The notes beneath the pieces were generated by a model, which had not been told where the DNA came from, searched no databases, and worked only from the letters and a program-made list of their open reading frames with translations. The position numbers and the translations under genes are program-made. Below are positions 3,783 to 63,781 of a DNA stretch of 64,000 bases, one piece after another (within the stretch, counting starts at the first letter, position 1; the number at the start of each line of letters is the position of its first letter). Origin of the DNA: an uncultured Candidatus Saccharibacteria bacterium (GTDB lineage Bacteria > Patescibacteriota > Minisyncoccia > UBA11713 > 2-01-FULL-45-33); the NCBI GenBank assembly GCA_964464405.1, contig CAYXFX010000002.1, positions 44,027-108,026 of the forward strand, in the 5' to 3' direction.

Positions 3783-5510
3783 TTAATACTTAATTTTATA
3801 TAAATAAAGGCTTTCCGATCTTAAAACTTCTTCGAGCCCAGTTATAAATTTTAAGTCCCATTCGGGATTTTTCTCTTTATCCCAAACGATATAATTAACT
3901 CCGTATTTTCTTAATATTTCAACGATATTGTTTTTATTTTTTGAAATATCCGAGTATTTCGCCTCCAGTTCCTTTTTTACTTCTAGCTCACTTTTCCCGG
4001 TTTTATGTGCATTAAATCCGGCAACGGTTCCCAAAAGCATATAGTAATAGTTGCGGTCCGTAAAATTCTTTTCTGCGGTCTTTACATTTGAATAATAATC
4101 AAAAAAGTTATTTCTGGCGTCTTTATTTAAATATGTATAAACGTAAAATACATCATAAATTTTTTCTTCCGGTGTATTTAAAGTTTGTGCGCCATCTGCC
4201 CAAAAAAGGTCATGCGGAGTATGCACAATAAACAGAAGCTGATCTAAATATTGGGACGCAAGTATTACGCCCGGCGTGCTGTCTTTATTTAAATAATCAA
4301 TTGCCGCACCATAGCGTTGCAGATATTTTTTTATTTCGAATGTTGCAAATGTTCCGCGGTATTGATGGATTCCCATGTATCCATAAATTAATAAAATAAT
4401 AGAACAAAACAATATATTTTTATATTTAAAACTTTTTAATAAATCAGCCGCAATTATTAATACAACAAAAATCGAAACGGGAATGACAAAATACCAAAAA
4501 TAATGCCATGGCTGTATTTCTCTGCCAGTGATAATATGCTGATTTAGGACAAACCAATTTCCTAAAAATAAGCTGAAAAGCAAAATAGAATTTTTTTGCA
4601 TGCGGTTTTTATAAAAATACGGAATTAGCAAAAAAACAGGAACCAAAGCGATTTTGCTGAAAACAAATGAGCCGCTCAGTGTCTCCCCGGAAAAAAACAA
4701 AAGCCGCCGTCCTAATTCGGAGTTAATCACAGAAAAAAGCTTAATTAACGGATACGCACCAACTGCTAATGCCGTAACTCCGACAAGCACTATTTTTTTA
4801 ATTTGCCCAAAATCGCGCAACACCGCGTTTAGCAGCAAAGAAACAAAAATGACCGCTCCAGCATAAGTCCATGCGTAAAAATAAACATAAAATAACGCGC
4901 CTAGCGTCGCTCCAGACAAATAAATATATTTTTTATTTGTTTCTTTTAAACACTTATTAAAAAAATATAAAAAGAGAAAAAGAAAAATCGCGCTAAAAAG
5001 CGGACGTATAGGACGAGCATAAACATTAAAATCCGTGCCGTATCCGCTAAAAAGTATCGGATATCTAACAATCAAATTATATCCTCCGATAATAAAAACC
5101 GGCGCAAGAACCGAAACAATTTTGTCAGCCGTTAATTCAAGGGCTAAAAAATAAATAATAACTGAAAGCAAAAATACGCCAATAAATCCCCATATATTAA
5201 AAACGGCTTCAACATTGACATCAGTGGCCCCAAACAATTTATATGGAAACATCAGCAACTGTTCCACGTAAATTTGTTGGACATTGGGCCCATCTTTTCC
5301 TTCTTTTAAAATAAAATTCCCGAGAGAATGTCCGTCTAAAATTTCTCTGCCGTGAGCAAGATACTGCCACTCATCCGATTCAAAATTTCCTGAATTAATT
5401 CCTCTATAATCGCCTCCGGCTAAAAATGGGAGTATTATATTCGGAAAAAACACCAAAAAAGCAATGGCAAGCGCATTTACCAACATAAACTTGTGTTCCT
5501 TAAATTTCAT
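3783..5510 (-). CDS. Large polytopic membrane protein, paralog A of three; candidate GT-C-like glycosyltransferase of unknown family
   Basis: About 12 predicted TM segments. It shares motifs with 5500..7224 and 12960..14783: G-D-Y-R/Q-G-I-N..D-E..Y..G...L-x-G-N-x-L-G-N, FYVY-x-YAWT, (H/Y)T-x-HDLFW, and a C-terminal NIVE-x-L-x-KY-x-V-x-YI-x-WD. The start is taken at the internal Met (MKFKEHKF...) by alignment with the paralogs; the ORF track extends to 5543. Confidence 0.75.
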   Translation of the reverse strand: MKFKEHKFMLVNALAIAFLVFFPNIILPFLAGGDYRGINSGNFESDEWQYLAHGREILDGHSLGNFILKEGKDGPNVQQIYVEQLLMFPYKLFGATDVNVEAVFNIWGFIGVFLLSVIIYFLALELTADKIVSVLAPVFIIGGYNLIVRYPILFSGYGTDFNVYARPIRPLFSAIFLFLFLYFFNKCLKETNKKYIYLSGATLGALFYVYFYAWTYAGAVIFVSLLLNAVLRDFGQIKKIVLVGVTALAVGAYPLIKLFSVINSELGRRLLFFSGETLSGSFVFSKIALVPVFLLIPYFYKNRMQKNSILLFSLFLGNWFVLNQHIITGREIQPWHYFWYFVIPVSIFVVLIIAADLLKSFKYKNILFCSIILLIYGYMGIHQYRGTFATFEIKKYLQRYGAAIDYLNKDSTPGVILASQYLDQLLFIVHTPHDLFWADGAQTLNTPEEKIYDVFYVYTYLNKDARNNFFDYYSNVKTAEKNFTDRNYYYMLLGTVAGFNAHKTGKSELEVKKELEAKYSDISKNKNNIVEILRKYGVNYIVWDKEKNPEWDLKFITGLEEVLRSESLYLYKIKY

Positions 5511-7224
5511 ACAGATGAATGTTATTCTCACTTTTAATTTCATGAAGTGTATTTATAAAAGACAAATCCCAGCTAGAATAAATATTTTCATCCCACAAAA
5601 TATACCGAACTTCATATTTTTTAAGCATTTCGACGATGTTTTTAGGACTCCGCGCCAGTTTGTTGTATTCCTCTGAAAAATCATTTAATAACTTTTCTCT
5701 TTTTTCTAAAAGTTCCGGATCTTTTCTTCCTAGTCTGCGATAATATTCATAGTGGTCAAATCCGGATAAATATCCTTCTATGCCTTCATAAACCGCGTGA
5801 GTCGGCGCATTATTAATAAAATCATTTCTTGTATTTTTATTTAAATATACATAAAGATACAAAGCGTCTTTAAAGCGCTGCATAGGATTGTAATTCATTG
5901 CGGCAAAATTGTGCCAAAAAAGATCATGCGGAGTATATATATTTACGAGCTGCGCATAAGGGTCGTCTCCCGCTAAAACAACTTCTGACTCTTTTTCTTT
6001 ATTTAAAATTTCCAGCACACTTTTATATTTTTGGTCGTAAAGTTTAGATTCGTAAGTTGTGCCAAAAGAACGGTATTGTCCTATGGCCGTATTTAGCAAC
6101 GCAAGCAAAATCAGTAAACCAAAACTTATTTTTCTTAAAAAATTATAATTTTCGGACAGCTTCCATAACATATAGAAGGTCGTAATAATAAAAAGCGGCA
6201 CAATAAAAAACCAGTAATAATGATTTTGTTGTAGCATTCGTCCCGTAATTATCTGCTGGTTTAAGGCGACAAATCCGGCAAGAGCCACAGAAAGCACAAA
6301 AGGGGCATTCGAATCCTCGCGGTCTTTGTAAATAAAAAAACAGAAAAGAACCAGTGAAAGCAACCCGAGATTATTCATTATAGGAGCGCTTCCCAGTGAC
6401 GACCATGAAAAATAATAAAATTGTTCACCTGCCGGCGAATTCAAAAAGTTAAAAATACGCAAAAGATACAAGCTTCCGATAAAAAATCCCAAAATATTTA
6501 TCCAGAAAACCCTTTTTGCGTTGCGGAAATCCTTCCAAAAAAGAAGGGCTAAAAATAAAATTCCGTTTAAAACTAAAGCAAAAGTCCAGGCATAAAAATA
6601 AACATAAAAAAGTAGCCCGTAAAGCGCGCCGGCAAAAAATATCGTTTTAATTTTTTCTGATTTAAGTGCCTTTACTAAAGCAAGCAAGTAAGAAAAAAAT
6701 GCAAGTGAGCCAATATAAGGATATAAAGATCTGCCGTACACATTAAAATCCTCGTAAAAAAAAGTTTTGTTGTATACTATTGAATAACCGCCGACAACAA
6801 AAAGTGCGGCGGATATTGCGAGAAATTTATTCGCGCTAATTTTCAAAGTTAAAAAATAAATTAGCAGAATTAAAAGAAATACTCCTATAAAATTATAAAT
6901 ATTATAAAGCGTTACAATATTTATTTGGTCCTTCAGTCCAAGAAAATATAAAGGTCCAACAAGCACATACTCGTTTATCGTAAAGTAATAGTCTTGTTTC
7001 GTACTTTTCCCTTCTTTTAATGCGGGGTTGCCCAAATAATTGCCGTGAAGCACATCGTTTCCGCGTGTTAAATAAAGATGTTCGTCTGTACCAAAATGAG
7101 CAATGTTTATTCCTTGGTACGAATCTCCAGCTTTAAAATAAAATGCAACTAGAGGAAATTCTATAAGCAGAGCCAAAATAAAGGACGAAATTAGTGCGGC
7201 TCGATGTTGTTTTAAAAATTCCAT
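5500..7224 (-). CDS. Large polytopic membrane protein, paralog B
   Basis: 574 aa with the same conserved motifs as paralogs A and C (AGDSYQGINIAHFGTDEHLYLTRGNDVLHGNYLGN; FYVYFYAWTF; YTPHDLFW; KNIVEMLKKYEVRYILWDE). Confidence 0.8.
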   Translation of the reverse strand: MEFLKQHRAALISSFILALLIEFPLVAFYFKAGDSYQGINIAHFGTDEHLYLTRGNDVLHGNYLGNPALKEGKSTKQDYYFTINEYVLVGPLYFLGLKDQINIVTLYNIYNFIGVFLLILLIYFLTLKISANKFLAISAALFVVGGYSIVYNKTFFYEDFNVYGRSLYPYIGSLAFFSYLLALVKALKSEKIKTIFFAGALYGLLFYVYFYAWTFALVLNGILFLALLFWKDFRNAKRVFWINILGFFIGSLYLLRIFNFLNSPAGEQFYYFSWSSLGSAPIMNNLGLLSLVLFCFFIYKDREDSNAPFVLSVALAGFVALNQQIITGRMLQQNHYYWFFIVPLFIITTFYMLWKLSENYNFLRKISFGLLILLALLNTAIGQYRSFGTTYESKLYDQKYKSVLEILNKEKESEVVLAGDDPYAQLVNIYTPHDLFWHNFAAMNYNPMQRFKDALYLYVYLNKNTRNDFINNAPTHAVYEGIEGYLSGFDHYEYYRRLGRKDPELLEKREKLLNDFSEEYNKLARSPKNIVEMLKKYEVRYILWDENIYSSWDLSFINTLHEIKSENNIHLYEI

Positions 7225-20781: not shown

Positions 20782-21447
20782 TTATACTACCCTATTAATG
20801 TCTTCCGGCGAAGTAAAAGAAGGCCTGTTTTTTGCGATTACTGCCTTTACATTGTGTTCTTTTACAAATTTATTCATGAGCGACGTTAAATAATATTCAC
20901 CTGTCTCATGCTTTTCCGGAATGTAATTAAAAAGATCTGAATTTACAAGCATGAGCCCTCCTCCCCCCAAACTTGATTTCGGTTCCTGCGGCTTTTCTAC
21001 AATTTCAGTAATGAACCCTTCCGAAGACACCGTTACAATTCCGGAAGCCTTGGGATTTTCTACTTCCCAGCAAAGCCACGCAAATTCATTTTCAAGGCAT
21101 TTTTCAACATCGTTTTTTGAAATCAATTCGTCTGCATAAAAAATTAGAAATCTCTCCGCTTCGGTAAATAAATGCTTCGTAAGCAAAACGGCATTTCCGG
21201 TTCCCGAAAGCTCTTCTTGAACTATGTAGTGAATTTTTCTCCCTTTATAATTTTCTCCCAAGTATTCTTTGATTTTGTCGCCCATATAGCCGATGACGAG
21301 TATCGCTTCATTTATTTCTTCTGTAAGCGAATCAAAGATGTAGTCTAAAAAAGTTTTTTCGTTAAATTTTAAAAGCGGTTTAGGAACTTCATCCGTCAGA
21401 TGCCGCATTCTCTTTCCTCTACCTGCCGCCAGTATTATTGCCTTCAT
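20782..21447 (-). CDS. hddC: Sugar-1-phosphate nucleotidyltransferase; D-glycero-α-D-manno-heptose-1-phosphate guanylyltransferase (HddC-like)
   Basis: MKAIILAAGRGKRMRHLTDEVPKPLL NTP_transferase motif; 221 aa; clusters with gmhA, hddA and gmhB. Confidence 0.75.
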   Translation of the reverse strand: MKAIILAAGRGKRMRHLTDEVPKPLLKFNEKTFLDYIFDSLTEEINEAILVIGYMGDKIKEYLGENYKGRKIHYIVQEELSGTGNAVLLTKHLFTEAERFLIFYADELISKNDVEKCLENEFAWLCWEVENPKASGIVTVSSEGFITEIVEKPQEPKSSLGGGGLMLVNSDLFNYIPEKHETGEYYLTSLMNKFVKEHNVKAVIAKNRPSFTSPEDINRVV

Positions 21448-21548
21448 TCACATATTTTTAACTTTATTTTCTACTCCGTCAACTTGACGACTATAACTAA
21501 TAATGTAAATGTCACATAAGACCGTATCAGAAAGGATGTTCATGAATA

Positions 21549-22160
21549 TTGAAATCGCTGATTATTTCCGCTTTGATGTTCGGCTTGTGGCCGCTTGTGA
21601 TGCAAAAAAGCGAGCTCCCGGACACAACCAAGGCCTTTCTTTTGACTTCTGTCACAATCGTTGTGGTTGGTTTTGCATTTTTCGCGTTTATGTCCACAAA
21701 TAGTTTCCAAACCGCTGGCCAAGGGATTATAATCGCAGTACTAATTGCTAGTGTTGGCGGCGCAATGAATGGTTTTGGCACATTAAAATTTTTAGATGCT
21801 ACAAGCGCAGTTGCAAAAATAGATTTGGCAAAAGCCATTCTTACGATGATTTTAATGCAAGTTACAGCAAACGAACTCGGGGGGGATACTTCTTTACGGA
21901 TCTCCCATAACTTTGAAAAAGGTTGCGGGATTTATTTCCGCAGTCATAACTTTTTGTTTACTTGTTTTATAAAAAAACCGTCCGCGATTAGATCGGGGCG
22001 GTATTTTTTATTTGTTAAAAACACAGCGCTCAAAAAACCCGCTGATTTGCCTCCAGTCTGTAAAAACCTTGTAAGCGCCAGAGCAGTACAAATTCCTTAT
22101 TACTGTTTCGTCATCATACACTGGAATTCCGATGACCATAGAACCAGCCGCAACCCCTGA
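21549..22160 (+). CDS. Hypothetical small membrane protein. Doubtful: the 3' half is probably not coding.
   Basis: The first ~115 aa are hydrophobic (3-4 TM). The last 153 nt overlap the convergent HAD gene and translate to low-plausibility sequence. Confidence 0.3.
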   Translation: MKSLIISALMFGLWPLVMQKSELPDTTKAFLLTSVTIVVVGFAFFAFMSTNSFQTAGQGIIIAVLIASVGGAMNGFGTLKFLDATSAVAKIDLAKAILTMILMQVTANELGGDTSLRISHNFEKGCGIYFRSHNFLFTCFIKKPSAIRSGRYFLFVKNTALKKPADLPPVCKNLVSARAVQIPYYCFVIIHWNSDDHRTSRNP

Positions 22161-22709
22161 TTTGACTCCTCGCGGCGAATCCTCAAATACAACCTGTTCT
22201 GTCGGATCAATCCCCATGCGAGCAGATGTTTCCAAAAAACAGTCGGGGGCAGGCTTAGAATTTTTCACGTCAGTTAGTAAAACAATTTCATGAAGCATAA
22301 AAAGTTTTGCAAGTCCGGAATATTTAAGTAGCGCCAGACCACGTTCGAGTTCAACCGCCGTCCCTATGGATGTGCGATACCCCGCACATCTGATCTGTCC
22401 GAGGAACTCCAAGAATCTCGGCCGAGGCGATAAGTCCAAAGTTCTTAAAAGCTTGTCATAATGCAACCCTTTTCTTGCAAGAAATTCTTCCTGAGTTAAA
22501 TCCGGTTTTTTAGAAGCAAGAGAATAAATTTCTTGAATAATTTCTTTATCAGGCCCACCAATGAAGTGAGGCAATGTTTTAATGGCCTCTTTAAGCGTAA
22601 GACGCACCCCAATTTCTTCGGCGGCCATAAGCCACCCATTATGATGCGCAGGCTCCACATTTATCACAGTACCTTCTAAATCAAACGCCGCTCCCTTTAT
22701 CTGTGTCAT
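22008..22709 (-). CDS. HAD-superfamily hydrolase (β-phosphoglucomutase/phosphatase-like, subfamily IA)
   Basis: FDLEGTV motif I and VVFEDSPRGVKSGVAAG motifs III and IV; 233 aa. Confidence 0.7.
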   Translation of the reverse strand: MTQIKGAAFDLEGTVINVEPAHHNGWLMAAEEIGVRLTLKEAIKTLPHFIGGPDKEIIQEIYSLASKKPDLTQEEFLARKGLHYDKLLRTLDLSPRPRFLEFLGQIRCAGYRTSIGTAVELERGLALLKYSGLAKLFMLHEIVLLTDVKNSKPAPDCFLETSARMGIDPTEQVVFEDSPRGVKSGVAAGSMVIGIPVYDDETVIRNLYCSGAYKVFTDWRQISGFFERCVFNK

Positions 22710-22791
22710 CTTGCAAACCCCCTTCTTAAACTAACCAAAAACTATCAAAAAAAAGAAACAATGTCAAGCGTTAACAGGTTTTATTTCTAAT

Positions 22792-23547
22792 ATGGAGCAG
22801 CCGCAATATTTAGCGATGTACAACATGGAGCGCGATCATTGGTGGTTTCGCGGAAGGCGGAAGATACTGCATTCATGCCTAAAAACACACTCTCCCGTTA
22901 AAAGAAATAATGCCTTAGACATCGGCTGCGGTACAGGATTTAACGCGGCCTTGCTTTCAAACTTTGCAAAAAAAGTCGCTGGGCTTGATTTTTCGGACAC
23001 CGCTTTGGAGCTTGCGCGCAAAAGCAATCCGAACCTCACTTTAATTAAAGGCGCTTTTCCGGATTATAAAACTGGCGAAAAATATGAAATGATCACGTTG
23101 CTTGACGTTTTGGAGCATATTGACGATGACGCTAGAGCAATTAAACGGGTTGAAGAACTTTTGGCTCCCGGAGGGATTGCATTAATTACAATTCCTGCTT
23201 ACAAATTTTTATGGACAGAGCACGACGCGCTACTTCATCACAAGCGAAGATACACTAAGGCAGATGTCCTTAATCTAATTTCAAAAAATACATGCCTTAG
23301 CGTAAAAAAGGTAAGTTATTTTAACGCATTCATGTTTTTTCCAATTTTATTTTTTAGATTTATCAGAAAAGTTTTCCGCTTAAAAGAAGGAAATTCAGAT
23401 TTTTTTATGTTGCCCAAGCCATTAAATAATATTCTTGAAAAAATTTTTTCCTGGGAAGCACAAGCACTGCAATTCATCAATTTTCCCTTCGGAGTTTCAA
23501 TTATGGTTTTGCTGAAAAAAGAGTCGGCGTCTACTAAAGAAAGCTGA
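22792..23547 (+). CDS. Class I SAM-dependent methyltransferase
   Basis: ALDIGCGTGFNAALL motif I and LAPGGIALIT motif III. Confidence 0.8.
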   Translation: MEQPQYLAMYNMERDHWWFRGRRKILHSCLKTHSPVKRNNALDIGCGTGFNAALLSNFAKKVAGLDFSDTALELARKSNPNLTLIKGAFPDYKTGEKYEMITLLDVLEHIDDDARAIKRVEELLAPGGIALITIPAYKFLWTEHDALLHHKRRYTKADVLNLISKNTCLSVKKVSYFNAFMFFPILFFRFIRKVFRLKEGNSDFFMLPKPLNNILEKIFSWEAQALQFINFPFGVSIMVLLKKESASTKES

Positions 23548-23671
23548 TGTCTCTTCACTTTCCTCGCTCGCTCCGGCGCGGCTCGCTCAGGGTTTCGCGC
23601 TTCGCTCTTTTTGCTTCGCAAAAAACCAAGCCCGCTTCGCGCTCAAAACCCGCTCAGAAACATCAGCTTTC
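23539..23671. repeat. GC-rich ~133-bp palindromic repeat element, intergenic copy A, with perfect 12-bp terminal inverted repeats
   Basis: GAAAGCTGATGT (23539-23550) and ACATCAGCTTTC (23660-23671) flank a GC-rich core in an AT-rich genome. The core is about 70% identical to 27001-27138 (shared blocks CTTTCCTCG..TCCGGC, CTCAGGGT, GCTTCGCAAAAAACC, AAACCCGC). Confidence 0.7.
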
Positions 23672-23677
23672 TTTAAA

Positions 23678-25111
23678 TTACCAATATGTATAAAACAAAA
23701 CCTGCATAAATATGATTTGAAAAAATAACATGGAAAGAACAGAAGAAAAGTCGTCATCGCTTAAAGTTCTCCCTGAATAAATAACCGGCAAAATAAAAAG
23801 CGGAGTTATAAATAGCCAAATCCGCTCAATTTCTCCTTGGAATATGCCGACTAATAGAAAAATTGCGAGCATAAAAAATCCGACTAAATAGGGCCATAAT
23901 TTTTCTCTAAATATATTCCTGACATTTTTTAAAATAAGATAAATATTGGCAAATCCCAAATAAATGCAAAAAGCCGCCAAGTTTATAAAAAAATAAATAA
24001 AATATATTCTAATTGATTCGAAGTTGCTGCTAACCGTTTCCGCGTTGGATTTATAAGAATCAAAAAAATCATTAATCACCGAATATCCTGCCCAAAGCTT
24101 AAGCGCTAAAAAAAATAAAATAAATCCCAAAGCCGCAAAAACAGCCCTTGCGAAAGTTTTAAAATTATTTTGCGAAAAATTAAAAAGTGCGTAAATAATA
24201 AGCAATAAATATAAAGGTGTGAGCAGCAAAAAAAGGAAATTTGAAAAAAGCGAAAACCCCGCTAGTACCCCTCCCGCGAAAGCCAAAATGAGATTTTTTT
24301 TAACGCCAAAGTAAATTAGCACAAACGCAATAAATGAGAAAAACAAAAACGTCGTTTCCATCGAAGTCGCGCTAAACATAAGGAAACTCGGAACAAGCGC
24401 GAAAATCTGAATTCCGCGCCTTGCTTCTGCTTCACTGGCAAATTCGCACAATAAATAGTAAAGTAGGAAAATAGTAAGACCCCCAAGCATTACAACTAAT
24501 AGGGATATGCCGGCTAAATTTGGCCAAGAAACTTTTTGAAAAGCGTAAAGTATTAAAGAATACCCGGGTGGGTGCCAACGGCTATGAAGCGCAAGCTGGA
24601 GTTTGAGATTCGAATAGTCTTTTATAAAATCCTGCGCGCTTGTAATAAGCGGCAAATTACCAGAATATTCCCAGCGAGTGCGGGTAAACGGTTCATAAAC
24701 GCCGTAAAATCCCTCGCGTATTGCCGCAATACTAACCGCAAGAAAAACAAATATTATATAAAGTGTAAGTAAAAATTTAAAAGTTGAAAAATTTTCTATC
24801 CGCTTCCTAAAATAAATAAATATTAAAAAAATAAAAAATGCGGCCGAAAACCAAAAATATCCCGATGTTTTAGGTGAGAAAATCGCATAAAAAATTAAAC
24901 GGTCGGGAATATAACCTTTGTAAAAAAAAGAAATAAAAGCTTTAAGTAAAGAAAAAAAAGAAACGAGTCCCAAAACCAAAAAAAATAAGCGCCGCGAAAA
25001 AACATTTTTCTTAAAATAAAAAAAATACCAAAAAGTAAATATGACGGAAAATATAAATAACGTAACAATTCCCCAAAAAGCAATTACGAGCTTCGGCCCT
25101 GAAATATCCAT
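23678..25111 (-). CDS. Polytopic membrane protein, probable GT-C-type (PMT_2/ArnT-like) glycosyltransferase
   Basis: 477 aa and very hydrophobic. The loop motif ..HSRWHPPGYSLILY.. resembles the KPPL motif of PMT_2/ArnT. It is paired with a divergent GT2 gene. Confidence 0.55.
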   Translation of the reverse strand: MDISGPKLVIAFWGIVTLFIFSVIFTFWYFFYFKKNVFSRRLFFLVLGLVSFFSLLKAFISFFYKGYIPDRLIFYAIFSPKTSGYFWFSAAFFIFLIFIYFRKRIENFSTFKFLLTLYIIFVFLAVSIAAIREGFYGVYEPFTRTRWEYSGNLPLITSAQDFIKDYSNLKLQLALHSRWHPPGYSLILYAFQKVSWPNLAGISLLVVMLGGLTIFLLYYLLCEFASEAEARRGIQIFALVPSFLMFSATSMETTFLFFSFIAFVLIYFGVKKNLILAFAGGVLAGFSLFSNFLFLLLTPLYLLLIIYALFNFSQNNFKTFARAVFAALGFILFFLALKLWAGYSVINDFFDSYKSNAETVSSNFESIRIYFIYFFINLAAFCIYLGFANIYLILKNVRNIFREKLWPYLVGFFMLAIFLLVGIFQGEIERIWLFITPLFILPVIYSGRTLSDDDFSSVLSMLFFQIIFMQVLFYTYW

Positions 25112-25817
25112 AGTTATACCAGTTTATAACGATGAAGCAGCAATCGGCAAGAGCTTGCGTTTGCTTACCGATTTCATAAATTTAGGCGGTCTAAATGCCG
25201 AAGTTTTAATAATTAATGACGGGGGCAAAGACAAAACTCTGGAAACCGTAAAAAATGAAATGCAAAAATTCCCTTTTATTAAATTAATCGATAGAAAAAA
25301 AAATAAAGGAAAAGGTTTTACAGTAAGAGAAGGTTTTGGCGCAGCCCAAGGAGATATTATTTTGTTTACTGACGCCGATCTTCCGTACGGAACAAAATAT
25401 TTCGAAAAATTCATTGAAGCAATTAATTCTGGCGCAGATTTAGCTATCGCAAATAGAAATCTTTTAAAATTCATGAAAGAAAAGAAAAGCCCCGGACTCT
25501 TGCGCACTCTAAACCATTGGGGTACAATATTTTTTGTAAAAATGCTGCTAGGCCTTCCCTTTTCAGACACTCAAGCGGGACTTAAGGGAATAAAAAAAGA
25601 AGCGGCGATGCGCCTCCTTCCTAAATTAACTATTGATAGGTATGCTTTCGATCTTGAACTTTTGGTAGCCGCCAAAAAATCAAATTTCAAAATTGCTGAA
25701 ATTCCCGTAGCGCTTGAAAATGTCGGATCCTCACACATCAATATTTTGCGCGACACTCTCGAAGCCCTGCGCGACGCTCTTAAAATCTGGTGGAGAATGA
25801 GAAAAAATTTATATTGA
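25041..25817 (+). CDS. Family 2 glycosyltransferase (dolichyl/polyprenyl-phosphate glucosyltransferase-like)
   Basis: ISIVIPVYNDE...VLIINDGGKDKT...TDADLPYG. Confidence 0.85.
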   Translation: MTENINNVTIPQKAITSFGPEISIVIPVYNDEAAIGKSLRLLTDFINLGGLNAEVLIINDGGKDKTLETVKNEMQKFPFIKLIDRKKNKGKGFTVREGFGAAQGDIILFTDADLPYGTKYFEKFIEAINSGADLAIANRNLLKFMKEKKSPGLLRTLNHWGTIFFVKMLLGLPFSDTQAGLKGIKKEAAMRLLPKLTIDRYAFDLELLVAAKKSNFKIAEIPVALENVGSSHINILRDTLEALRDALKIWWRMRKNLY

Positions 25818-25853
25818 AAATATTATCTAAAAAAAGACTAGCGGAGTCTCAAA

Positions 25854-25895
25854 AAGCATTCCAACTTTACGCGATCGCGTAAAGTTGGAATGCTT
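25854..25895. repeat. 42-bp perfect palindrome with GCGATCGC (HIP1-like) core; bidirectional terminator-like
   Basis: AAGCATTCCAACTTTACGCGATCGCGTAAAGTTGGAATGCTT, followed by a T-run. It is intergenic between convergent or adjacent genes. The core CAACTTTACGCGATCGCGTAAAGTTG recurs at 63179-63202 and 63782-63807. Confidence 0.7.
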
Positions 25896-25981
25896 ATTTT
25901 TATTTTTTCTTTTTTCTGAAATTTACCACTTGGTGCGCTATAGCATGTTATGTTGCATTTTAAATATTTAGATCATTTCAT

Positions 25982-27613
25982 TTAATTGCTTTTGTACAGC
26001 ACGTAATGCCCTTCGTTTTTGAGAAGAGTATATTTTGTTTTTAGATCATTTTCAAGATCCGGGAAAAGGGTCGGATAGTCCTCTTGCGTTACAACATAAG
26101 AATACATTTTTCCGTTTTCTGTTAAAGAGTTCCTGCCAAAATATAATACCGGATTAATTTGGAGAAATTGATAAATCTGAAAATCATTAAGCAAATATGC
26201 GACGCTGGGAGCATTAATGATTAGTATTTTAGAATCTTTAGGCAAGGCGTTTGAAATATAATCTGAAATTTTTTGTGCGTCATTTGAATAATATAGCAGT
26301 GAATATCTTTGATTAAATGTGAAAACCAGCTGGAACAGAAATATAAATATAATTGCTGCTTGCGCGGCTTTAATGTAATTAAAACTAGTTATTACTTTAG
26401 GAACTTTAAAAATTAATTTCTTTTTTGAATTTAAATCTACCAGCTTTTTTTCAATATTTTTTAGTATGTAAGTAATAGACGCAGGAAACGTAAGAAAAAG
26501 CAGAAGATGTGCTGGGAAAAAATAACGGTACCAACCTGGTGTTTTTAAATAAAAAATAAGTGTAAAAATCGTAAAAATAAATAAAATTGACTCTGTTTCC
26601 TGAACTTTTTCTTTTTTTATTTTTTTGATAATTAAAAACAAAATAAATGCAGAAAAAAGAACTGTGAAATGGATAGGAGTTGATTCCTTAAAAAACCTCA
26701 CTATATTTTGCAAAATAAGTTCAATTAAATTTTGCGAGGCATATGAGTTTGAGTAATAACCGAAAGCGCTAATAAGCCCCCCTGCTGAATACTCGGAAAG
26801 AATCGTATATAGCCAAAAAATCATAGGGGACAACGCGCCTGCGGCGATTAAAAACAGGCGCTTACATAAATTATTTAAATCTCGCCATCCGTAAATTATT
26901 TCTGCAATAAAAACTGAGGCAGGAACAATCAAAAAAAACGGTTTTGTCGCTGCCGAAAGACCAATGAACAAACCCGCAAAAAACAGGTGCCGATTGAAAA
27001 CAACCCGAGCAGTGTTTTTGCTTTCCTCGTTCCGGCCAGCGCCGGAACTCAGGGTGGAAGCTTCGCAATTTTTCGCTTTGCGAAAAAACCGTGCTTGCTC
27101 GCTTCCAAACCCGCAAAAATGCTCTCGGTTTGTTTTCTTGGGACAGAGCTCAAGCAAAATAAGCGCCGCCAGAAAATAAAATAAACCCGGAATTTCTCCT
27201 AATAAATTTTTTCCGTTGCCATAAAATGGAGTAAAACTTATGATTAGCGCGACACTCATTATCGCCAGCGTTATTCCATACATTTTTTTTACAAGAAAAT
27301 ATGCAGAAATTGTAAATAGAAATAAAAACACAACCATCGGATATCTTGCTGCCAAAATTGTATTTCCGAAAATTTTAACTGAAAGCGCAGAAGGCAAAAG
27401 CGCAGGATAATTTGAAGTTATTAAAAATTGCCTTGTTTCTACGTATTCTCCGGGGGCGGTGCCCAAGCTAAATACTCCGTCGCTCACTAAACTTTTTATT
27501 ATTCCTAAATTAATCCCCTCATCAAACCATGTAGCCGGGCTTGCGGAAAGATGCCACGTGCTAAATACGGCTAAAATTATAAAAAGTAAAATTATAATTA
27601 TTTTATTTTGCAT
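25982..27613 (-). CDS. GT-C superfamily membrane glycosyltransferase (PMT_2/ArnT-like) carrying an in-frame repeat-element insertion
   Basis: N-terminal multi-TM region with the loop ..WFDEGINLGIIKSL... A hydrophilic, GC-rich-encoded segment (KKTNREHFCGFGSEQARFFRKAKNCEASTLSSGAGRNEESKNTARVVF) interrupts the TM core; its DNA (27001-27138) is a copy of the 23539-23671 element. Confidence 0.75.
   Translation of the reverse strand: MQNKIIIILLFIILAVFSTWHLSASPATWFDEGINLGIIKSLVSDGVFSLGTAPGEYVETRQFLITSNYPALLPSALSVKIFGNTILAARYPMVVFLFLFTISAYFLVKKMYGITLAIMSVALIISFTPFYGNGKNLLGEIPGLFYFLAALILLELCPKKTNREHFCGFGSEQARFFRKAKNCEASTLSSGAGRNEESKNTARVVFNRHLFFAGLFIGLSAATKPFFLIVPASVFIAEIIYGWRDLNNLCKRLFLIAAGALSPMIFWLYTILSEYSAGGLISAFGYYSNSYASQNLIELILQNIVRFFKESTPIHFTVLFSAFILFLIIKKIKKEKVQETESILFIFTIFTLIFYLKTPGWYRYFFPAHLLLFLTFPASITYILKNIEKKLVDLNSKKKLIFKVPKVITSFNYIKAAQAAIIFIFLFQLVFTFNQRYSLLYYSNDAQKISDYISNALPKDSKILIINAPSVAYLLNDFQIYQFLQINPVLYFGRNSLTENGKMYSYVVTQEDYPTLFPDLENDLKTKYTLLKNEGHYVLYKSN
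27001..27138. repeat. GC-rich palindromic repeat element copy B, inserted in-frame within a CDS
   Basis: Imperfect terminal inverted repeats (CAACCCGAGCAGTGT and its near reverse complement AATGCTCTCGGTTTG), an internal palindrome TTCGCAA..TTGCGAA, and about 70% identity to copy A. Confidence 0.65.
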
Positions 27614-28925
27614 AAAAATTTTTTAATGCAAACATAAATAAAAATGGCGAAAGAGGCAGCATATACCTGCTCATATCCGCTCCGATCCCAAGTGCACCCA
27701 GAGATACAGCATTTACCGCGAGTATTGATATAAAAAGCGAAGACCAAAAAATAATTTTTCTATCAAAAAATCCAATTAAAGACAAAAAATATGTTACGTA
27801 CCAAAAAAAACCTCCGATTAAAGCAAGCAATGTAATTATATTGCCCAAGTAACTCTCAAAAATCTGCGGAAATTTCGGGCGAATAACGTATTCTGAAAGA
27901 TATTTATAAGGATTTTTAAATAGAGATTTAATGACGAGCGACGAATGAAATTTTATATATTCCAGCGGATTTTCTTTAAATATTTTCCAAAAATGTTCTT
28001 TATAATAAGGAACTAGCGCAAAATCATAATTTGAAATATCTTTTCTGGGATATCCCGAAGGCGCTTCGGGGCGCGGCAAAATAAATCCTTTTTTATCCGC
28101 ATATTGGCTCGTTACATTTCCATAAAGATTATACCAAGACGCGCTTGTTAACTCCCAAGTGTTAAAAACAATTTTATTTCGCAGCATCCAAGGGAATAAG
28201 ATCGCAAAAAAAATAATAATACTAACCGCCCCGACCTTAAGGTCGTGGCTCCAAGGAAAAATTATTTTTTCATAGGTTAACTCAGACGAGGAATTGTTGT
28301 TTATCATTTCTTCTTTCCGCTTACTATAAAACCTCCAAACCATTGCAAGCAGGAATAACGGGAAAAGATAAAATCCTACCGATCTTGTAAGAGTCGCGAG
28401 CCCAAAAATAAATGAAAACAAAAAATATCTTTTTAAAACAAATAAATAAAAACTTAGAATAAACAAGAACGCGTAGAGATAATCAGACATCAAAAGATTG
28501 TTCCAGTAAATCGACATCGGCTCAACGGAAACAACGAGAGCTGAAAAAAGCCCTACTTTTTTTGAATCAAAAATTAAAAAACCCATTTTATAAATTAAAA
28601 TAACAGTAAATCCGGCAATAATGTTTTGAAAAAAAATAACTAAAAAAAGAGGAAGGCGCGCCCACAAAACTCCTGCGATAAGCAAAATATATAACGGCGG
28701 CCTATAAGCGTCGGGCATGTAGGGAGCATCGGTGTTTAAACTAAAAACGCCGTGGTTTATTAAATTTTCAGCACTTCTTAAATAAAAAGAAAATGCATCG
28801 GAATACGCCAAAAATCCCTCGCCCCCGAATTTTATCTGCACAAAAAGCGCGTAAAGAAATCTGATTCCGAATGCCGTCAAAAAAAGAAAAGTTTCAATTT
28901 TGTGTTCTTTTAAAAATCTAGTCAT
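27603..28925 (-). CDS. GT-C superfamily membrane glycosyltransferase (PMT_2/ArnT-like)
   Basis: 440 aa with the motif [17 protein letters not shown] in the first extracytoplasmic loop and about 11 TM segments. Confidence 0.75.
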
Positions 28926-29617
28926 CCCAAAATATTAAAACGTAAAATTGCCCAAACTGCGGCGAGTCCATCTTTCCAGTCGATTTTTTTTCCTTCCGCA
29001 TAAGTGCGGCCGCTATACGAAATTCCAACTTCATAAACTCGTAGTTTTGCGCGGGCAATTCTTGCCGTTATTTCTGGTTCAATCCCAAAACGGTTGCTTT
29101 TTAAATTATCACGTATAGCAAGAAGCGCTTTTCTATTAAAAGCCTTATATCCTGTTTCCATATCAGTTAAGTTTAAATCTGTGAATATATTTGAAAATGT
29201 CGTAAGTAATTTATTCCCGACATAATGCCAAAAAAAGAGAACTCTGTGGGCGGAAGCTCCCATAAAACGCGATCCATATACAACATCTGCTTTGCCATCG
29301 AGCAATGGTTTTAAAAGTAAATTATATTCACTAGGATCATATTCTAAATCCGCGTCTTGAATTATTGCAAAATCGCCCGAGCATTCTTTAAATCCTCTTC
29401 TGATTGCGGCCCCTTTGCCCATATTTTTTTCTTGATAAAAAATTTTATATTTTTGTTCCAAATTTTTTAACACGTCGCGCGTGCCGTCCCGAGATCCGTC
29501 ATCAATAATTATTATTTCTTTTTCCAAATCGCAAGCGTCTGCTCGCAAAATAGCATCCACTATCTTATGAATAGTGGTTTTTTCATTATATGCTGGAATA
29601 ATTACCGAAAGCTTCAT
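28922..29617 (-). CDS. Family 2 glycosyltransferase (polyprenyl-phosphate sugar synthase-like)
   Basis: [11 protein letters not shown]...[12 protein letters not shown]...QDADLEYD; translationally coupled to the upstream GT-C gene (4-nt overlap). Confidence 0.85.
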
Positions 29618-29659
29618 CTCTGGATTATAAAATAAATTTCAGATATAGTACAGATTATA

Positions 29660-31270
29660 ATGGACAAAAAGATCTTGATAGTCCTTGTGCTCGCTTTTGT
29701 TTTGAGGCTCGCGGGAATCGCTTACGGGCTGCCACTCTGGCTGATAGATGACGAGCCGCCTTTTATTTTAGGCGCTCTTAAAATGATGGAATTAAAAACA
29801 TTACTCCCTAACTCCCATTTTGAAGAATTTAAAACCGTACTTTATTACCCGCCATATTTGTCTTATCTCTATTTGCTTCCATTTTCTCTGCTTGTGGGCA
29901 TTAAATATTTATTTTTTTCGGGCTCCACAGAACTTTTTACTTCATATTTACTAGCGGATCTTTCCGGTTTTTTTATTATCGCAAGATTTTTTTCTATATT
30001 CGCTGGAGTGTTTTCTATTTATTTTACATACGCTACCGCGAGAAATTTATTTAGAAACAAAAAGCCAGCAGTTTTTTCCGCAATACTAGCCAGCACAAGT
30101 TTAATTCATATTTCTTTATCCATAGTAAGCAGACATTGGATCTGGGTTTTTTTATTTACTTCTTTAGTATTATTTTTTCTCTCGCAACAAAATTGGAGTT
30201 TTAAAAAGAAATATTTTCTTGCATTTTTATCTGCAGGCATCGGAATAGGATTCGCAGTTATTAACGTCATCCTAACTGGACTCATACTTTCGTGGTATTT
30301 ACTTTATGAAAAAAATTCAACTTTTAAACTTATCAAAGAAAAATATTTTTATTTATTATCGGCTATTTTTATTTTTTTAGCTTCTCTTCCCTACCTTCTT
30401 TATAAAGGAAGCCTGGGATTTACTGCGGATGTCACAACTAAGGTATCAAAAAATATTTCGGGGGCTATTTTTTCTCCTTTTAACTTCGCGTATACAATTT
30501 TTCAATCCGAATTTATACTTATAATATTCGCGGCATTCGGCTTTTATTTTGTTTTTAGAAACAAAAGGAATATTTTTTGGGCTTTTGGCATATATATTTA
30601 TACCGTTAGTACAGTTTTTTACATAATATTCCGTTTTGAACCGCGCTTTTTTATGGCGCTGCTTCCATATTATTTGATTTTAGCAGGATACGGTTTATGT
30701 GAACTGCAAAATAAAATTAAAAATAAATATTTATCTGAAGCTCTGCTGATTTTTTTGATAGTTCCAATGATATTTTCTTTTAGACTATCAGCTCTTGCTT
30801 TTAAAAATGACACCAGGGTTTTGTTAAGAAACTGGGCTCAAAAGAATTTACCTCAAAAGACTAAAATATTAGTTAATGCGCGCCTTACAAGATTTCCGAC
30901 CACCAAAGAAGCCGTCTCTGAACAGCAAAAAATTGATCCCACTTCGGTGAGAAAAATCGACAAAGCAGAGGCAGAGTTAAACTACTCGAATCTGCATTCT
31001 TTGAATATTTTTGACGCAAATAATAAATTATTTTTTGAAAATATAGATAAATATATCAAAGAAAACAAATATGAATATGCCGCGATCAGCCCCGGGTATA
31101 GGCATAGCGAATTTTTTGAGAACGTGCTAAAAAAAGGAATACTGCTAAAAAGTTTTAGCGGAGGAAAATCGGAAATGTCTATTGCGGAAAGCCAATTTTT
31201 TAAAAACCCGTTTGAATTATTTAAGATTAAAGAACTCGGTCCTGAAATTAAATTATATAAAATAAACTAA
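29660..31270 (+). CDS. GT-C superfamily membrane glycosyltransferase (PMT_2/ArnT-like)
   Basis: 536 aa with the loop motif WLIDDEPPFILGAL...YYPPYLSYLYLL and a multi-TM core plus a C-terminal soluble domain. Confidence 0.7.
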   Translation: MDKKILIVLVLAFVLRLAGIAYGLPLWLIDDEPPFILGALKMMELKTLLPNSHFEEFKTVLYYPPYLSYLYLLPFSLLVGIKYLFFSGSTELFTSYLLADLSGFFIIARFFSIFAGVFSIYFTYATARNLFRNKKPAVFSAILASTSLIHISLSIVSRHWIWVFLFTSLVLFFLSQQNWSFKKKYFLAFLSAGIGIGFAVINVILTGLILSWYLLYEKNSTFKLIKEKYFYLLSAIFIFLASLPYLLYKGSLGFTADVTTKVSKNISGAIFSPFNFAYTIFQSEFILIIFAAFGFYFVFRNKRNIFWAFGIYIYTVSTVFYIIFRFEPRFFMALLPYYLILAGYGLCELQNKIKNKYLSEALLIFLIVPMIFSFRLSALAFKNDTRVLLRNWAQKNLPQKTKILVNARLTRFPTTKEAVSEQQKIDPTSVRKIDKAEAELNYSNLHSLNIFDANNKLFFENIDKYIKENKYEYAAISPGYRHSEFFENVLKKGILLKSFSGGKSEMSIAESQFFKNPFELFKIKELGPEIKLYKIN

Positions 31271-38554: not shown

Positions 38555-40855
38555 TTAATCCAGTAGCGTGTCAATTGTGTTTTTTATCATTCTTTCTTTT
38601 GAAAATTCCTGCGCTTTTTGCTTTGCATTTTCGGAGAATTTTTTTGCCCGTTCCGGATTTTTTAAAATCTCTAGAATTCTACTTTTAAGTGCTTCTTTAT
38701 CATTGTAATCAACTAAAAATCCACTTTCCCCGTCTTTAATAAGTTCCGGGTTGCCTCCGATATCGGTAGTTACAACCGGAACTCCTAAAGCCATTGCTTC
38801 TAGAATTTGGTGTGACAAGCCCTCATATGCCGTATTTAATACAAAAACATCCGCGGCTCGCAAATACATAAATAATTTTTCTTTGGGTTCATCATGAAAT
38901 ATAAATAACTTTATTTCCGGAATCTCCTGCTTTAATTCGTTAATTGCTTCTTTTAAAGCTTCAAATCCCTTCCATGGAACATTTCTGCCAGCAGAAACAA
39001 CAACTTTGCCGGAAACTCCGAGTTGTCTTCTTGCTTCGTCTTTCAAAATATTTACGTTCGGAATCTCAAACGAATTGTATACAACGTGAATTTTATTTTC
39101 CGGCACTCCCCACATTAAAACGATTTTTTTTAAATATTCGCTCGGGACTATTACGAAATCTGCTTTCTTTGCCACAAACCGCTCGACGAAACGCCTCGCT
39201 TCAGTGAAAAAATCGTATCTGCTTTTTTGAAACTCTTCCAAGTTTGAAAATTGAAAATTGCCTGCCCGCCAATTGGCAGGCGGGGAAATTGAAAATTTTT
39301 GCATATACTGCTCCCACGCATAGTCGCCAACAATTTTCAGTAAAAACTTTTTCCGTAAAATTTTTGCCGCAAGCATTGCTGGCAAACCTACGCTTACGGG
39401 ATCCTGCGCGAAAACAGCATCCGCGTTCCGCGCGAACCGCAGGGCTCTAAAGAAATAAAGTGTATGTCTTAAAACACGAGGATATTTTCTTATTAATCCG
39501 AAACTTAAAATTTTTACTCCAATATTTTTTTTTGGGAGCTCGTCCAACAAAATTTTGCTATACGTTGCCGGCCCCCCCACATCCGGCGGATATAGCCCAG
39601 TGGCTATAAGAACTCTTTTTTTGATGAATAGTTGACTATTAAAAATTTTTTCATAGTCATCCGCAATTTTATCCCACGAAAACTTTTCTCTTACCATTTT
39701 TTGCCCATTATCAACAATACGCGCCAACAACTCTTTATTGTTTAATAAAGTTTTAATCTTCTCCGCCAAATCTTTTGGGTCATCAATTTTTGCAAACAAC
39801 CCCGTTTCTTTATCCTTAATGATGTCTAAAATTCCGCCAACAGGAGTTCCTATTATAGGGAGGCCGGCTGATAAAGCCTCAACGAAAGCATTGCCCATAC
39901 CTTCCGATCGTGAAGGTCGAACAAAAATATCGGCTTGGGATAGATGCTTTGGAATTTCATCGTACGGCACTTCACCCAAAAATTTAATCTGCAATCCTCC
40001 CTCCGAAAAGAATGTTCCTCCCCCTTTTTCCCCCTCCCTTAAAGTAAGGGAGGGGGTCGGTGGGTGGGTTATCTCATTTGCCAAACTTTCTAAAACACTA
40101 CGCTCCGACCCATCACCAATAACTAGAAGTTGGAAGTTTGAAGTTGGTGGTTGGATTTTTTTCAGCTCCGCCATCGCCCTTATCAAAACATCAATCCCAT
40201 TTTTGGGAACCAATCTTGATACAGTAATTATGACATTTGATTTTTTTTGAAAATTGAAAATTGCCTGCCCGCCAATTGGCAGGCGGGGAAATTGAAAATT
40301 GTTTGTATCCACTCCATTATGAATGACTTTTTCTTCTCCGATATATCCATAATCGTGCGCGACATTTAGTAAGTAGTTAGAAATTGCGGTTACGCAATCT
40401 GCTTGATTTAAAATGAATTTAAACATCCTACCTATAATTCCTCCTCTTCCTTTTTTAATCCTTTCGTCACCGTACCCGTATTGGATATTAAAAATGAACG
40501 GAATTTTTGGATAAAATATTTTGCATATTGCCGCCGCCGCTGCGCCGAATGATAAATCTAGCCCAAAAAATAAATTTTCTTTTTTCTTCATAAGTTTTCT
40601 GATCACAAATAAAGAAAAAATTGGCAACAAATATTTATCTATTACGGTTCCGAAACCCAATCTAATTATCTTTCCTTCTGAATACACCTCCTCACTCGGC
40701 AAGTCCTTCCTCATTCGGGAAGTTACAATAATAAAATCAAATTTATTTTTTAACCGCTTAGAAATTTCTTCAACAGCAATTTCCGCACCTCCAATAAAAG
40801 GCCTGTACGCCGTTGTAAAAACGATAATTTTGGGCTTTGATGCGCTTAAATCCAT
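38555..40855 (-). CDS. Tandem double GT4 (two GT-B domains) glycosyltransferase fusion, carrying several in-frame repeat insertions
   Basis: Domain 1 has ..SRSEGMGNAFVEALSAGLPIIGTPVGGI... Domain 2 has ..TAYEGLSHQILEAMALGVPVVTTDIGG... Total 766 aa. It contains a 54-bp exact repeat twice (39244-39297 and 40247-40300), a C/G-rich palindrome (40004-40070), and a 7-mer tandem (40126-40155). Confidence 0.8.
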   Translation of the reverse strand: MDLSASKPKIIVFTTAYRPFIGGAEIAVEEISKRLKNKFDFIIVTSRMRKDLPSEEVYSEGKIIRLGFGTVIDKYLLPIFSLFVIRKLMKKKENLFFGLDLSFGAAAAAICKIFYPKIPFIFNIQYGYGDERIKKGRGGIIGRMFKFILNQADCVTAISNYLLNVAHDYGYIGEEKVIHNGVDTNNFQFPRLPIGGQAIFNFQKKSNVIITVSRLVPKNGIDVLIRAMAELKKIQPPTSNFQLLVIGDGSERSVLESLANEITHPPTPSLTLREGEKGGGTFFSEGGLQIKFLGEVPYDEIPKHLSQADIFVRPSRSEGMGNAFVEALSAGLPIIGTPVGGILDIIKDKETGLFAKIDDPKDLAEKIKTLLNNKELLARIVDNGQKMVREKFSWDKIADDYEKIFNSQLFIKKRVLIATGLYPPDVGGPATYSKILLDELPKKNIGVKILSFGLIRKYPRVLRHTLYFFRALRFARNADAVFAQDPVSVGLPAMLAAKILRKKFLLKIVGDYAWEQYMQKFSISPPANWRAGNFQFSNLEEFQKSRYDFFTEARRFVERFVAKKADFVIVPSEYLKKIVLMWGVPENKIHVVYNSFEIPNVNILKDEARRQLGVSGKVVVSAGRNVPWKGFEALKEAINELKQEIPEIKLFIFHDEPKEKLFMYLRAADVFVLNTAYEGLSHQILEAMALGVPVVTTDIGGNPELIKDGESGFLVDYNDKEALKSRILEILKNPERAKKFSENAKQKAQEFSKERMIKNTIDTLLD
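39244..39297. repeat. 54-bp exact repeat, copy 1, inside the GT4-fusion CDS
   Basis: TTGAAAATTGAAAATTGCCTGCCCGCCAATTGGCAGGCGGGGAAATTGAAAATT, identical to 40247-40300. It contains the quasi-palindrome CCTGCCCGCCAATTGGCAGGCGGGG flanked by GAAAATT direct repeats. Here it is translated as ..PPANWRAGNFQFSNLEEF.. Confidence 0.9.
40004..40070. repeat. C/G-rich palindromic insert inside the GT4-fusion CDS
   Basis: CCTCCCTCCGAAAAG...CCCCTCCCTTAAAGTAAGGGAGGGGG (perfect palindrome 40031-40055), encoding the low-complexity segment LREGEKGGGTFFSEGG. Confidence 0.6.
40247..40300. repeat. 54-bp exact repeat, copy 2, inside the GT4-fusion CDS
   Basis: Identical to 39244-39297 but read in a different frame (..NFQFPRLPIGGQAIFNFQ..). 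Confidence 0.9.
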
Positions 40856-63104: not shown

Positions 63105-63178
63105 TGAACTCTCCTCCTTTTCTAGACATAAAATAGAATTTTATTGCATTTTTGTCAAACGACGACGACAAAAAATCC

Positions 63179-63202: not shown

Positions 63203-63212
63203 AACACATTTA

Positions 63213-63770: not shown

Positions 63771-63781
63771 ATACTATATTT

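Follow-up and report, generated by a model that had tools for sequence, protein, structure and literature searches.

GC-rich palindromes resembling Rickettsia palindromic elements at a gene end and within a coding sequence of a candidate phyla radiation genome

The two copies in the window

Two copies of a small GC-rich palindromic repeat lie in the 64-kb stretch of contig CAYXFX010000002.1 analysed here (the window; 38% GC), which comes from a genome of the candidate phyla radiation (CPR). Copy A (23535-23675, plus strand) is located between two convergent genes, a plus-strand S-adenosylmethionine (SAM) methyltransferase open reading frame (ORF) at 22792-23547 and, as its right-hand neighbour, the minus-strand gene of a 477-aa PMT_2-like membrane protein at 23678-25111. 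Copy B (26995-27140, plus strand) is located inside the minus-strand gene of a 543-aa GT-C glycosyltransferase of the family-39-like (PMT_2) type (25982-27613), and relative to this host gene it is antisense to the orientation of copy A. The element measures 130-145 nt, contains no transposase gene and consists of a core that is closed, in each copy, by an inverted repeat of its own. A GC-rich palindromic repeat with one gene-end copy and one in-frame copy had been proposed from the letters alone (the sequence-only reading), and the comparison of the two copies, described below, confirms that it is real.

In copy A, the left outer arm (23535-23554), the core (23558-23653, CTTTCCTCG ... AAACCCGC) and the right outer arm (23656-23675) follow one another on the plus strand. 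The arms are 95% complementary over 20 nt and pair perfectly over 16 nt (TAAAGAAAGCTGATGT / ACATCAGCTTTCTTTA); the sequence-only reading was thus right about perfect terminal inverted repeats, which are longer than the 12 bp that it gave. It also placed the element just after the methyltransferase stop codon. This position has to be corrected, as the TGA (23545-23547) falls inside the left arm, together with the last four codons of the gene (T K E S), so that the element overlaps the gene end. The right arm stops 3 nt short of the stop codon of the convergent 477-aa ORF. In copy B, the left outer arm (26996-27020), the core (27021-27114) and the right outer arm (27114-27137), all on the plus strand, are arranged in the same order, and the arms (24-25 nt) are imperfect, with one bulge and a few mismatches. 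Scored with covariance model R1, copy A, which has a type I core, reaches 122 bits, and copy B, which has a type II core, reaches 128.7 bits.

The common core of about 95 nt runs on the same strand in both copies, from CTTTCCTCG to AAACCCGC, and is 66% identical in a multiple alignment and about 72% identical in a local alignment, in line with the initial estimate of about 70% identity with imperfect arms in copy B. The local alignment of A and B scores 46, as compared with a mean of 15.2 (standard deviation 2.4) in 2000 shuffles, which corresponds to z=13; elsewhere, over 1720 other window tiles on both strands, the best score is at most 28. Both copies are among the approximately 20 GC peaks of the window, and the core does stand out in its surroundings, as had been remarked. 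When RNA folding was predicted for these GC peaks and compared with shuffles, A and B were the sole peaks with strongly negative folding z-scores; those of the elements range from -4.5 to -7.5. Searches of the 64 kb with nhmmer and with the covariance model gave no third copy. The GT-C gene and its insert are also present in an independent Logan assembly (L001).

The 3' end of the methyltransferase gene differs from that of its relatives. The window protein is 14 aa shorter than its syntenic orthologue and terminates within the arm of the element, and at the syntenic site in CP066687.1 (L034), which has no element, the methyltransferase gene runs 57 nt into the convergent one. Because the arm of copy A resembles the arms of a related repeat, family 4 (see below), it would be part of the element, and its CTGATG motif gives the TGA stop. 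Copy A thus probably supplies the last codons and the stop codon of the methyltransferase. As for the surroundings, positions 20782-31270 form a conserved cell-envelope glycosylation cluster that is syntenic with L034, a 651-kb Giovannonibacteria genome, and with L037. This cluster contains several GT2 genes, three or four PMT_2-like GT-C membrane proteins, the SAM methyltransferase and a nucleotidyltransferase.

Within the GT-C gene, copy B encodes codons 159-205 (26999-27139, minus strand) and leaves the host frame intact. The peptide, KKTNREHFCGFGSEQARFFRKAKNCEASTLSSGAGRNEESKNTARVV, is 47 aa long and contains 10 K/R and 5 D/E, which agrees with the approximately 45 hydrophilic residues first counted; EHFCGFGSEQAR and NCEASTLSSGAGR are tryptic peptides of this insert. 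GT-C homologues are mostly 460-490 aa long, and in the alignment 20 of the 24 best aligned homologues lack the insert, having a short loop (consensus APEFNFKK, 8 aa) where the window protein, P0001, has 55 aa. With the insert in place, the PMT_2 match is confined to profile positions 11-94 and scores 24.6 bits, which is below the gathering cut-off, whereas after deletion of aa 159-205 it extends over positions 11-160 and scores 28.6 bits, above the cut-off. An AlphaFold model based on 94 homologues has a mean predicted local distance difference test (pLDDT) score of 91.8; it exceeds 90 outside aa ~160-200, and residues ~160-200 are the sole stretch below about 55. The insert site is thereby predicted to be a loop between helices 140-155 and 196-223. 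The homologue alignment, the Pfam comparison with and without the insert, and the AlphaFold model all support the earlier view that copy B is an in-frame insertion, sited in a loop between transmembrane helices and apparently tolerated there.

The only other GT-C protein with this insert is P0002, the nearest of the homologues found, in which it has an identical position, and the insert peptides of P0001 and P0002 are 84% identical, as compared with 53-61%, depending on the alignment, for the whole proteins. Three further orthologues, from other Giovannonibacteria, have different inserts in the same GT-C loop, each a long hairpin at the DNA level: P0006 (L034:10001-11467), P0003 (L037:10001-11545) and P0014 (L038:10001-11512). 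The GT-C inter-helix loop is a recurrent landing or tolerance site. The inserts of P0006 and P0003 have a common inner motif, CAGATGAAAWTTYTAGGCGTGGGCG, and different outer stems, and the hairpin of P0014 is unrelated. A second insert in the window GT-C protein, NIEKKLVDLNSKKKLIFKVPKVITSFNYI (26372-26458, aa 386-414), is found in none of the aligned homologues; it has 17% GC, adjoins AT-rich inverted repeats and has pLDDT values of 71-81.

Further copies and the conservation of pairing

Further copies of this core lie in MiaA, at the ends of other genes and in a single region between divergent genes, and all of them, like the closest named homologues, belong to Candidatus Giovannonibacteria. 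What would have refuted the sequence-only reading, a segment common to all GT-C orthologues and no copies elsewhere, is thus not what is seen. A pattern scan of GTDB species representatives revealed copy C, which lies inside miaA (tRNA dimethylallyltransferase) on MFHO01000034.1 (L002) of RIFCSPHIGHO2_02_FULL_45_13. Its core is 86% identical to the core of copy B, and copies C and B have the same orientation to their host genes and recognisably homologous peptides (GFEASEHGFLRSKNREASTLSPDAGRDEESK versus GFGSEQARFFRKAKNCEASTLSSGAGRNEESK). The element occupies the MiaA linker of at least five orthologues from other Giovannonibacteria, namely copy C and four more, which are 60-70% identical; in the homologue alignment this linker, between RAIEIA and WLGIKRP, is hypervariable. 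Copy B and five full-length MiaA copies share one orientation and one stop-free frame, while the other frames carry stops. Two shortened MiaA forms (L044 and L043) have lost 39 and 78 nt internally, lengths divisible by three, and keep both core ends. The L043 form (P0129, 'arms only') was considered as a virgin hairpin target. This interpretation was rejected, since both core ends (CTTTCCTCG...CCCGC) are retained, which identifies it as an internal deletion derivative.

Other copies are associated with the ends of genes. Copy D (L020), which came from the metagenome scan, has a core 94% identical to that of copy A and holds the rpiB stop codon in its left arm; its locus has no genes in common with the window. 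Copy E (L033), which was reached through a peptide match, lies 5 nt past the stop codon of neuB. All three gene-end copies, A, D and E, overlap a stop codon or lie within 5 nt of one. The covariance model also detected a short derivative at L041:4756-4856, between the divergent genes gatB and efp and beside the gatB start codon, as well as two members of the related family 4. One of these (L033:544-689) lies right after a stop codon and abuts copy E, and the other (L045:1189-1335) lies within miaA and adjoins a family-1 copy. At L033:544-830, the family-4-like copy and copy E stand back to back between convergent genes, both oriented alike relative to an upstream gene of their own, whose stop codon they follow; P0121, called as a 70-aa 'protein', is a spurious ORF that runs through copy E. 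The metagenome pattern scan returned 30 loci, of which 26 had matched by chance, for the most part within a single gene of soil bacteria with high GC, and the only real copies were L014 and L032 (both equal to copy C) and L020 (copy D). No copy came from pattern scans of viral contigs.

Base pairing was analysed in nine distinct copies (alignment A5), over the outer stem and four inner helices. Standard pairs occupy 81.7% of the cells, as opposed to 64% after shuffling and 35-46% when the partners are slid, and 34 of the 52 pairs have changed on both sides; none of these measures was reached in any of 500 shuffles. RNAalifold independently recovers the outer stem and three inner helices, in which 27 of 39 pairs are compensatory. 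The MiaA series includes a paired nonsynonymous change: where the 5' arm has CAT->CGC (His->Arg), the 3' arm has ATG->GCG (Met->Ala). The MiaA inner hairpins show comparable compensation across codons. The non-Watson-Crick cells are strand-symmetric, with 17 of the G-U type and 18 of the A-C type, which suggests that neither RNA strand is favoured.

Within the MiaA insert, differences per codon position amount to 0.29/0.30/0.34 and the amino-acid difference to 43%, whereas the rest of MiaA shows 0.25/0.18/0.55 and 29%; third codon positions are thus more conserved in the insert than in the host gene. Pairing compensation, together with the lack of a third-position excess, indicates that the constraint acts on DNA or RNA pairing and not on the peptide. 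The insert shows no protein-level purifying selection.

The outer arms behave differently from the core. Cores are 55-94% identical between copies, while the arms, outside the MiaA orthologues, are 18-47% identical and yet always complementary. Between A and D, the cores are 94% identical and the arms 42% over the arm columns, with the shared inner stem included. The left arm of copy D contains the last codons and the stop codon of rpiB, whose 3'-end sequence is GGGTTAGATTAG, and is unrelated to the arms of A. The latter contain a motif, GAAAGCTGATG..TCTCTTCAC, that is related to the family-4 arms GAAGCTGATGCAGTTTCTGAAC at L033:544-689 and L045:1189-1335. A motif of the form CTGATG...TTTCTGAAC is common to the arms of copy A, alone among the copies, and to family-4 elements located at unrelated sites; the pair of family-4 copies also have an arm motif in common, and CTGATGCAGTTTCTGAAC is an arm sequence. 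The idea that copy-specific arms are inverted duplications of the target was examined and rejected for copy A, given that its family-4 relatives carry the same arm motif at unrelated loci, and it may still hold for copy D. The arms of copy B bear a weak, low-complexity resemblance to a small family-2 palindrome.

A repeat family and its rival explanations

Copies A and B are very probably diverged copies of a small family of non-coding, GC-rich nested-palindrome repeats in Giovannonibacteria, selfish in behaviour and comparable to Rickettsia palindromic elements (RPEs) and the miniature transposable elements with inverted repeats known as MITEs. The element would consist of a core of about 95 nt that folds three-way and is closed by an outer stem of 16-25 bp, and the family would have spread to several unrelated sites in Giovannonibacteria genomes. 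Copies may survive where the harm that they cause is slight: at stop codons or a few bases away from them, as in the case of copy A, and may also survive within genes where the insertion is a multiple of three, free of stops and located in a tolerant loop, in which case it would be translated. Copy B would in this way lengthen a short loop, which joins two GT-C transmembrane helices, by 47 mostly basic residues. After insertion, the hairpin would be kept through a constraint on nucleic-acid pairing and not on the peptide. Movement by a trans-acting transposase or by hairpin-directed recombination is possible, and template switching during replication may help to keep the arms complementary. 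The distribution of the copies points to transposition-like movement. The stop-free frame in six diverged copies, the same orientation and frame in two host genes and the deletions in multiples of three suggest that the GT-C insert is translated, and its effect would be neutral or nearly so.

The repeat is accordingly regarded as a new family of RPE-like coding palindromes in a CPR lineage, an analogue of RPEs and not a homologue. As summarised in a passage of PMC10969869, RPE-1 to RPE-10 are imperfect palindromes of ~100-150 bp that are found both between genes and in frame in housekeeping genes (Ogata et al. 2000 Science 290:347, 2002 Genome Res 12:808), and a passage of the same source gives 44 RPE copies for R. 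conorii. The likeness is considerable: in both cases imperfect palindromes of ~100-150 bp, in several families, are repeated in a small reduced genome; they are intergenic as well as in frame in unrelated genes (here GT-C and MiaA), with a peptide that is compatible, here by prediction, with the host fold; and no transposase or mechanism has been identified in either. The sequence-only reading took the arrangement to be the hallmark of RPEs. That comparison is apt for in-frame, loop-compatible palindromes in unrelated genes, but by analogy only, as the host is not Rickettsia. Common descent between elements of a CPR (Patescibacteria) host and RPEs is not expected, and a GC-rich element in an AT-rich genome makes homology unlikely. 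The present family also differs in abundance, with about two copies per 64 kb and about a dozen loci as compared with the 44 copies given in that passage for R. conorii, and in that its arms differ between copies while the core is conserved and pairing is constrained, with no detectable constraint on the peptide. It had further been supposed that such a feature was undescribed in CPR-like genomes, and in keeping with this, literature searches on CPR, Patescibacteria, Parcubacteria and Giovannonibacteria gave nothing on such elements.

A second comparison is with ORF-overlapping bacterial MITEs, such as Coxiella QMITE1 and QMITE2 (PMC5896051), intragenic ERIC and the Neisseria Correia elements. 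They are likewise small, non-autonomous hairpin repeats, often in 3' untranslated regions, which are sometimes fused in frame at gene ends or supply stop codons, as copy A probably does, and occasionally lie in the middle of an ORF. Those MITEs have conserved terminal inverted repeats and target direct repeats (2-3 nt in QMITE1, 7-11 nt in QMITE2, TA in Correia elements), whereas the present family shows no visible duplication of the target and has terminal arms whose sequences are for the most part not shared.

Several observations weigh against a mobile family of this kind. Its copy number is low: 64 kb hold two copies, and all the collections that were searched yielded about a dozen distinct loci. 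Between close strains, no presence/absence polymorphism was seen that would point to recent mobility. Reading of the flanks of copies A, B, C, D and E showed no target-site duplication, palindromic ends and old, diverged copies being apt to blur the boundaries, and there is no transposase partner to point to, no search for one having been made. Outer arms that are poorly conserved between most copies are atypical for terminal inverted repeats recognised by a transposase. The in-gene copies look old and vertically inherited (GT-C orthologues are ~55-60% and MiaA orthologues ~60-70% identical), and since they are common to diverged orthologues, some of the 'copies' would reflect descent and not movement. 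Translation of the insert is a prediction from frame logic. Finally, almost nothing came out of two peptide searches, which was read as rarity of the in-frame form. An index of 5.8 billion proteins, searched with a profile of the peptide, gave 6 candidates and one match (P0121), a result that has little bearing on rarity because P0001 itself was missed, and phmmer with a 53-aa peptide gave no matches among 1.84 billion cluster representatives, which may lack the insert.

Intrastrand template switching at quasi-palindromes during replication, in which one arm is copied to the other and arms may be rebuilt from the flanks, might maintain and partly create the hairpins, in place of selection or recognition by a transposase; this is a tentative possibility and would be a component of the proposed repeat family's history. 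Every copy has a near-perfect outer stem despite differing stem sequences, and A and D combine cores that are 94% identical with arms that differ about as much as unrelated sequences do, and copy D includes in its left arm the last codons and the stop of rpiB. The compensatory changes are strand-symmetric and are present even where amino acids change. The arms of copy A, however, are not derived from its flanks, as their motif recurs at unrelated loci in elements of family 4, and selection for the hairpin predicts the same pattern.

The position of several copies invites comparison with transcription terminators. A terminator or mRNA-stabilising hairpin module of the repetitive extragenic palindrome (REP) or SPRITE type, either native or co-opted, would make the in-gene copies accidental. 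Four gene-end copies (A, D, E and L033:544-689) overlap a stop codon or start 0-5 nt from it, in the same orientation to the upstream gene, and T-rich sequence can be read directly past the 3' arm in A, B, C and E. In addition, copy A lies between convergent genes, a setting in which the genome elsewhere has a terminator-like perfect hairpin (25854-25895). This explanation is nevertheless rather unlikely: a terminator scan called neither A nor B, copy B sits within an ORF, as does every member of the MiaA series, the derivative at L041:4756-4856 lies between divergent genes beside the gatB start codon, and the pairing is strand-symmetric. A gene-end position is, moreover, equally expected if disruptive insertions are purged. 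REP sequences and REPINs, which are mobilised by RAYT, and BIME clusters (PMC3733652) resemble the present elements as GC-rich palindromes at gene ends that form hairpins in single-stranded DNA or mRNA and have stems with compensatory changes. REPs are, however, 20-40 nt long, extragenic and present in high copy, with a GTAG/CGTC head, whereas the elements described here are 130-145 nt long, have a branched core and no tag, and are in some cases coding. The SPRITE of Streptococcus pneumoniae, a terminator-like MITE (PMC10969869), is similar in that its hairpin repeats lie immediately past stop codons, but a dedicated terminator would account neither for the in-frame intragenic copies nor for the one located between divergent genes.

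The very strong folding z-scores and the abundant covariation in a three-way-junction architecture would also suit a strand-specific structured RNA (a cis-regulator, ribozyme or small RNA) in place of a DNA repeat. Such an RNA is very unlikely, given that cmscan over 23400-27300 found no Rfam match at either copy at E<=10, that the G-U and A-C counts balance, that copies occur in both orientations relative to transcription and in frame within coding sequence, and that MiaA tolerates internal deletions of most of the core.

It is similarly improbable that the in-gene segment is removed before or after translation, as an intron-like, bypassed or intein-like sequence, to give a protein without the 47 residues. 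Such removal would account for insert substitutions that follow no codon-position pattern, as in untranslated sequence, and pairing in the long closing stem would place both junctions next to each other. The length of 140 nt, however, is far below the size of group I and group II introns, no Rfam intron was matched, and Pfam shows no intein domain. The frame in use is stop-free in six diverged in-gene copies while the other frames carry stops, and the deletions are multiples of three, which splicing would not need.

That the segment is an ancestral, lineage-specific GT-C loop, its likeness to copy A being a coincidence or a local duplication, is hardly tenable: P0002 does carry it at the same place, but 20 of the 24 best aligned homologues do not, the same core recurs in MiaA and at unrelated gene ends of other genomes, the insert is far more similar between P0001 and P0002 (84%) than the whole proteins (53-61%), and z=13 speaks against coincidence.

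Other hairpin families and wider meaning

In-frame hairpins are also present in another window gene (ORF 38555-40855), in GatB, in MiaA and in the GT-C loop, which suggests that the repeat family represented by A and B is one instance of a wider habit of the lineage. In a broader, speculative version of this idea, Giovannonibacteria, and perhaps many CPR bacteria, might carry many independent families of GC-rich hairpins that recolonise tolerant loops of essential proteins (GT-C, MiaA, GatB and a fused GT4), with stems kept or rebuilt from the flanks by copying at the DNA level and not through ends recognised by a transposase. If true, ultra-small genomes would have a so far undescribed way in which protein length evolves and palindromes propagate.

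Protein-coding palindromes had been presented as essentially restricted to Rickettsia; that they now have another well-supported example, in a phylogenetically distant lineage whose genome is just as reduced, suggests a general cause. Hairpin repeats may persist by lodging in protein loops and at stop codons when there is little room between genes. There are practical consequences as well, since inserts of this kind split domain matches (here PMT_2 falls below its gathering score), inflate protein length, create spurious small ORFs such as P0121, and can confuse the assembly and annotation of metagenome-assembled genomes. The MiaA series offers an unusually clean natural experiment, in which pairing is kept through coordinated nonsynonymous changes in a region read as coding, and it makes the way in which hairpins are maintained, by selection or by template switching, directly testable.

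Among the other hairpins, ORF 38555-40855 (minus strand), which encodes a 766-aa two-domain glycosyltransferase, contains two direct copies of a 58-nt palindrome, TTTGAAAATTGAAAATTGCCTGCCCGCCAATTGGCAGGCGGGGAAATTGAAAATT, at 39243-39300 and 40246-40303, which are 98% identical. Both are in frame and are read in two different frames, as NNFQFPRLPIGGQAIFNFQK and QKFSISPPANWRAGNFQFSN, and they form a second family of coding palindromes. The same ORF has, at 40030-40056, a 27-nt GC-rich hairpin of 12 bp, CCCCCTCCCTTAAAGTAAGGGAGGGGG on the plus strand, which reads ...PTPSLTLREGE... in translation; the MiaA homologue P0125 has a P/G-rich peptide of similar kind, PPPSPFVRGKGG.

The MiaA linker (alignment A4, columns ~220-380) holds at least three other insert families, which are sometimes adjacent or nested. 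Family 3 is RGETNDPLNGFSAVFGTVPERNEGQKRAEPSELRAGGARMSEEGALVS and family 4 is SELILAQPAPGSEASAILLRQKSETMPKWPQKPFG, and a further hairpin in L002 is GGCGACAGAAACGCT...AGCGTTTCTGCCGTC. In gatB (ORF 4775-6340, minus strand, of L002), a small palindrome, CAACACTCGGTGTTGAATCCCCAAAAACACCGAGTGTT, is in frame at L002:5690-5745; read in the opposite orientation, as STLGVESPKTPSVF, it forms a second insert in the GT-C homologue P0002.

A perfect palindrome, CCAACTTTACGCGATCGCGTAAAGTTGG, occurs in three copies in the window, at 25851-25898, 63174-63204 and 63778-63808, and has a REP- or terminator-like look. The copy at 25851-25898 lies where the GT2 and GT-C genes converge; it forms a hairpin of 19-24 bp followed by a T tail and was called terminator-like, and the copies at 63174-63204 and 63778-63808 flank ORF 63213-63770.

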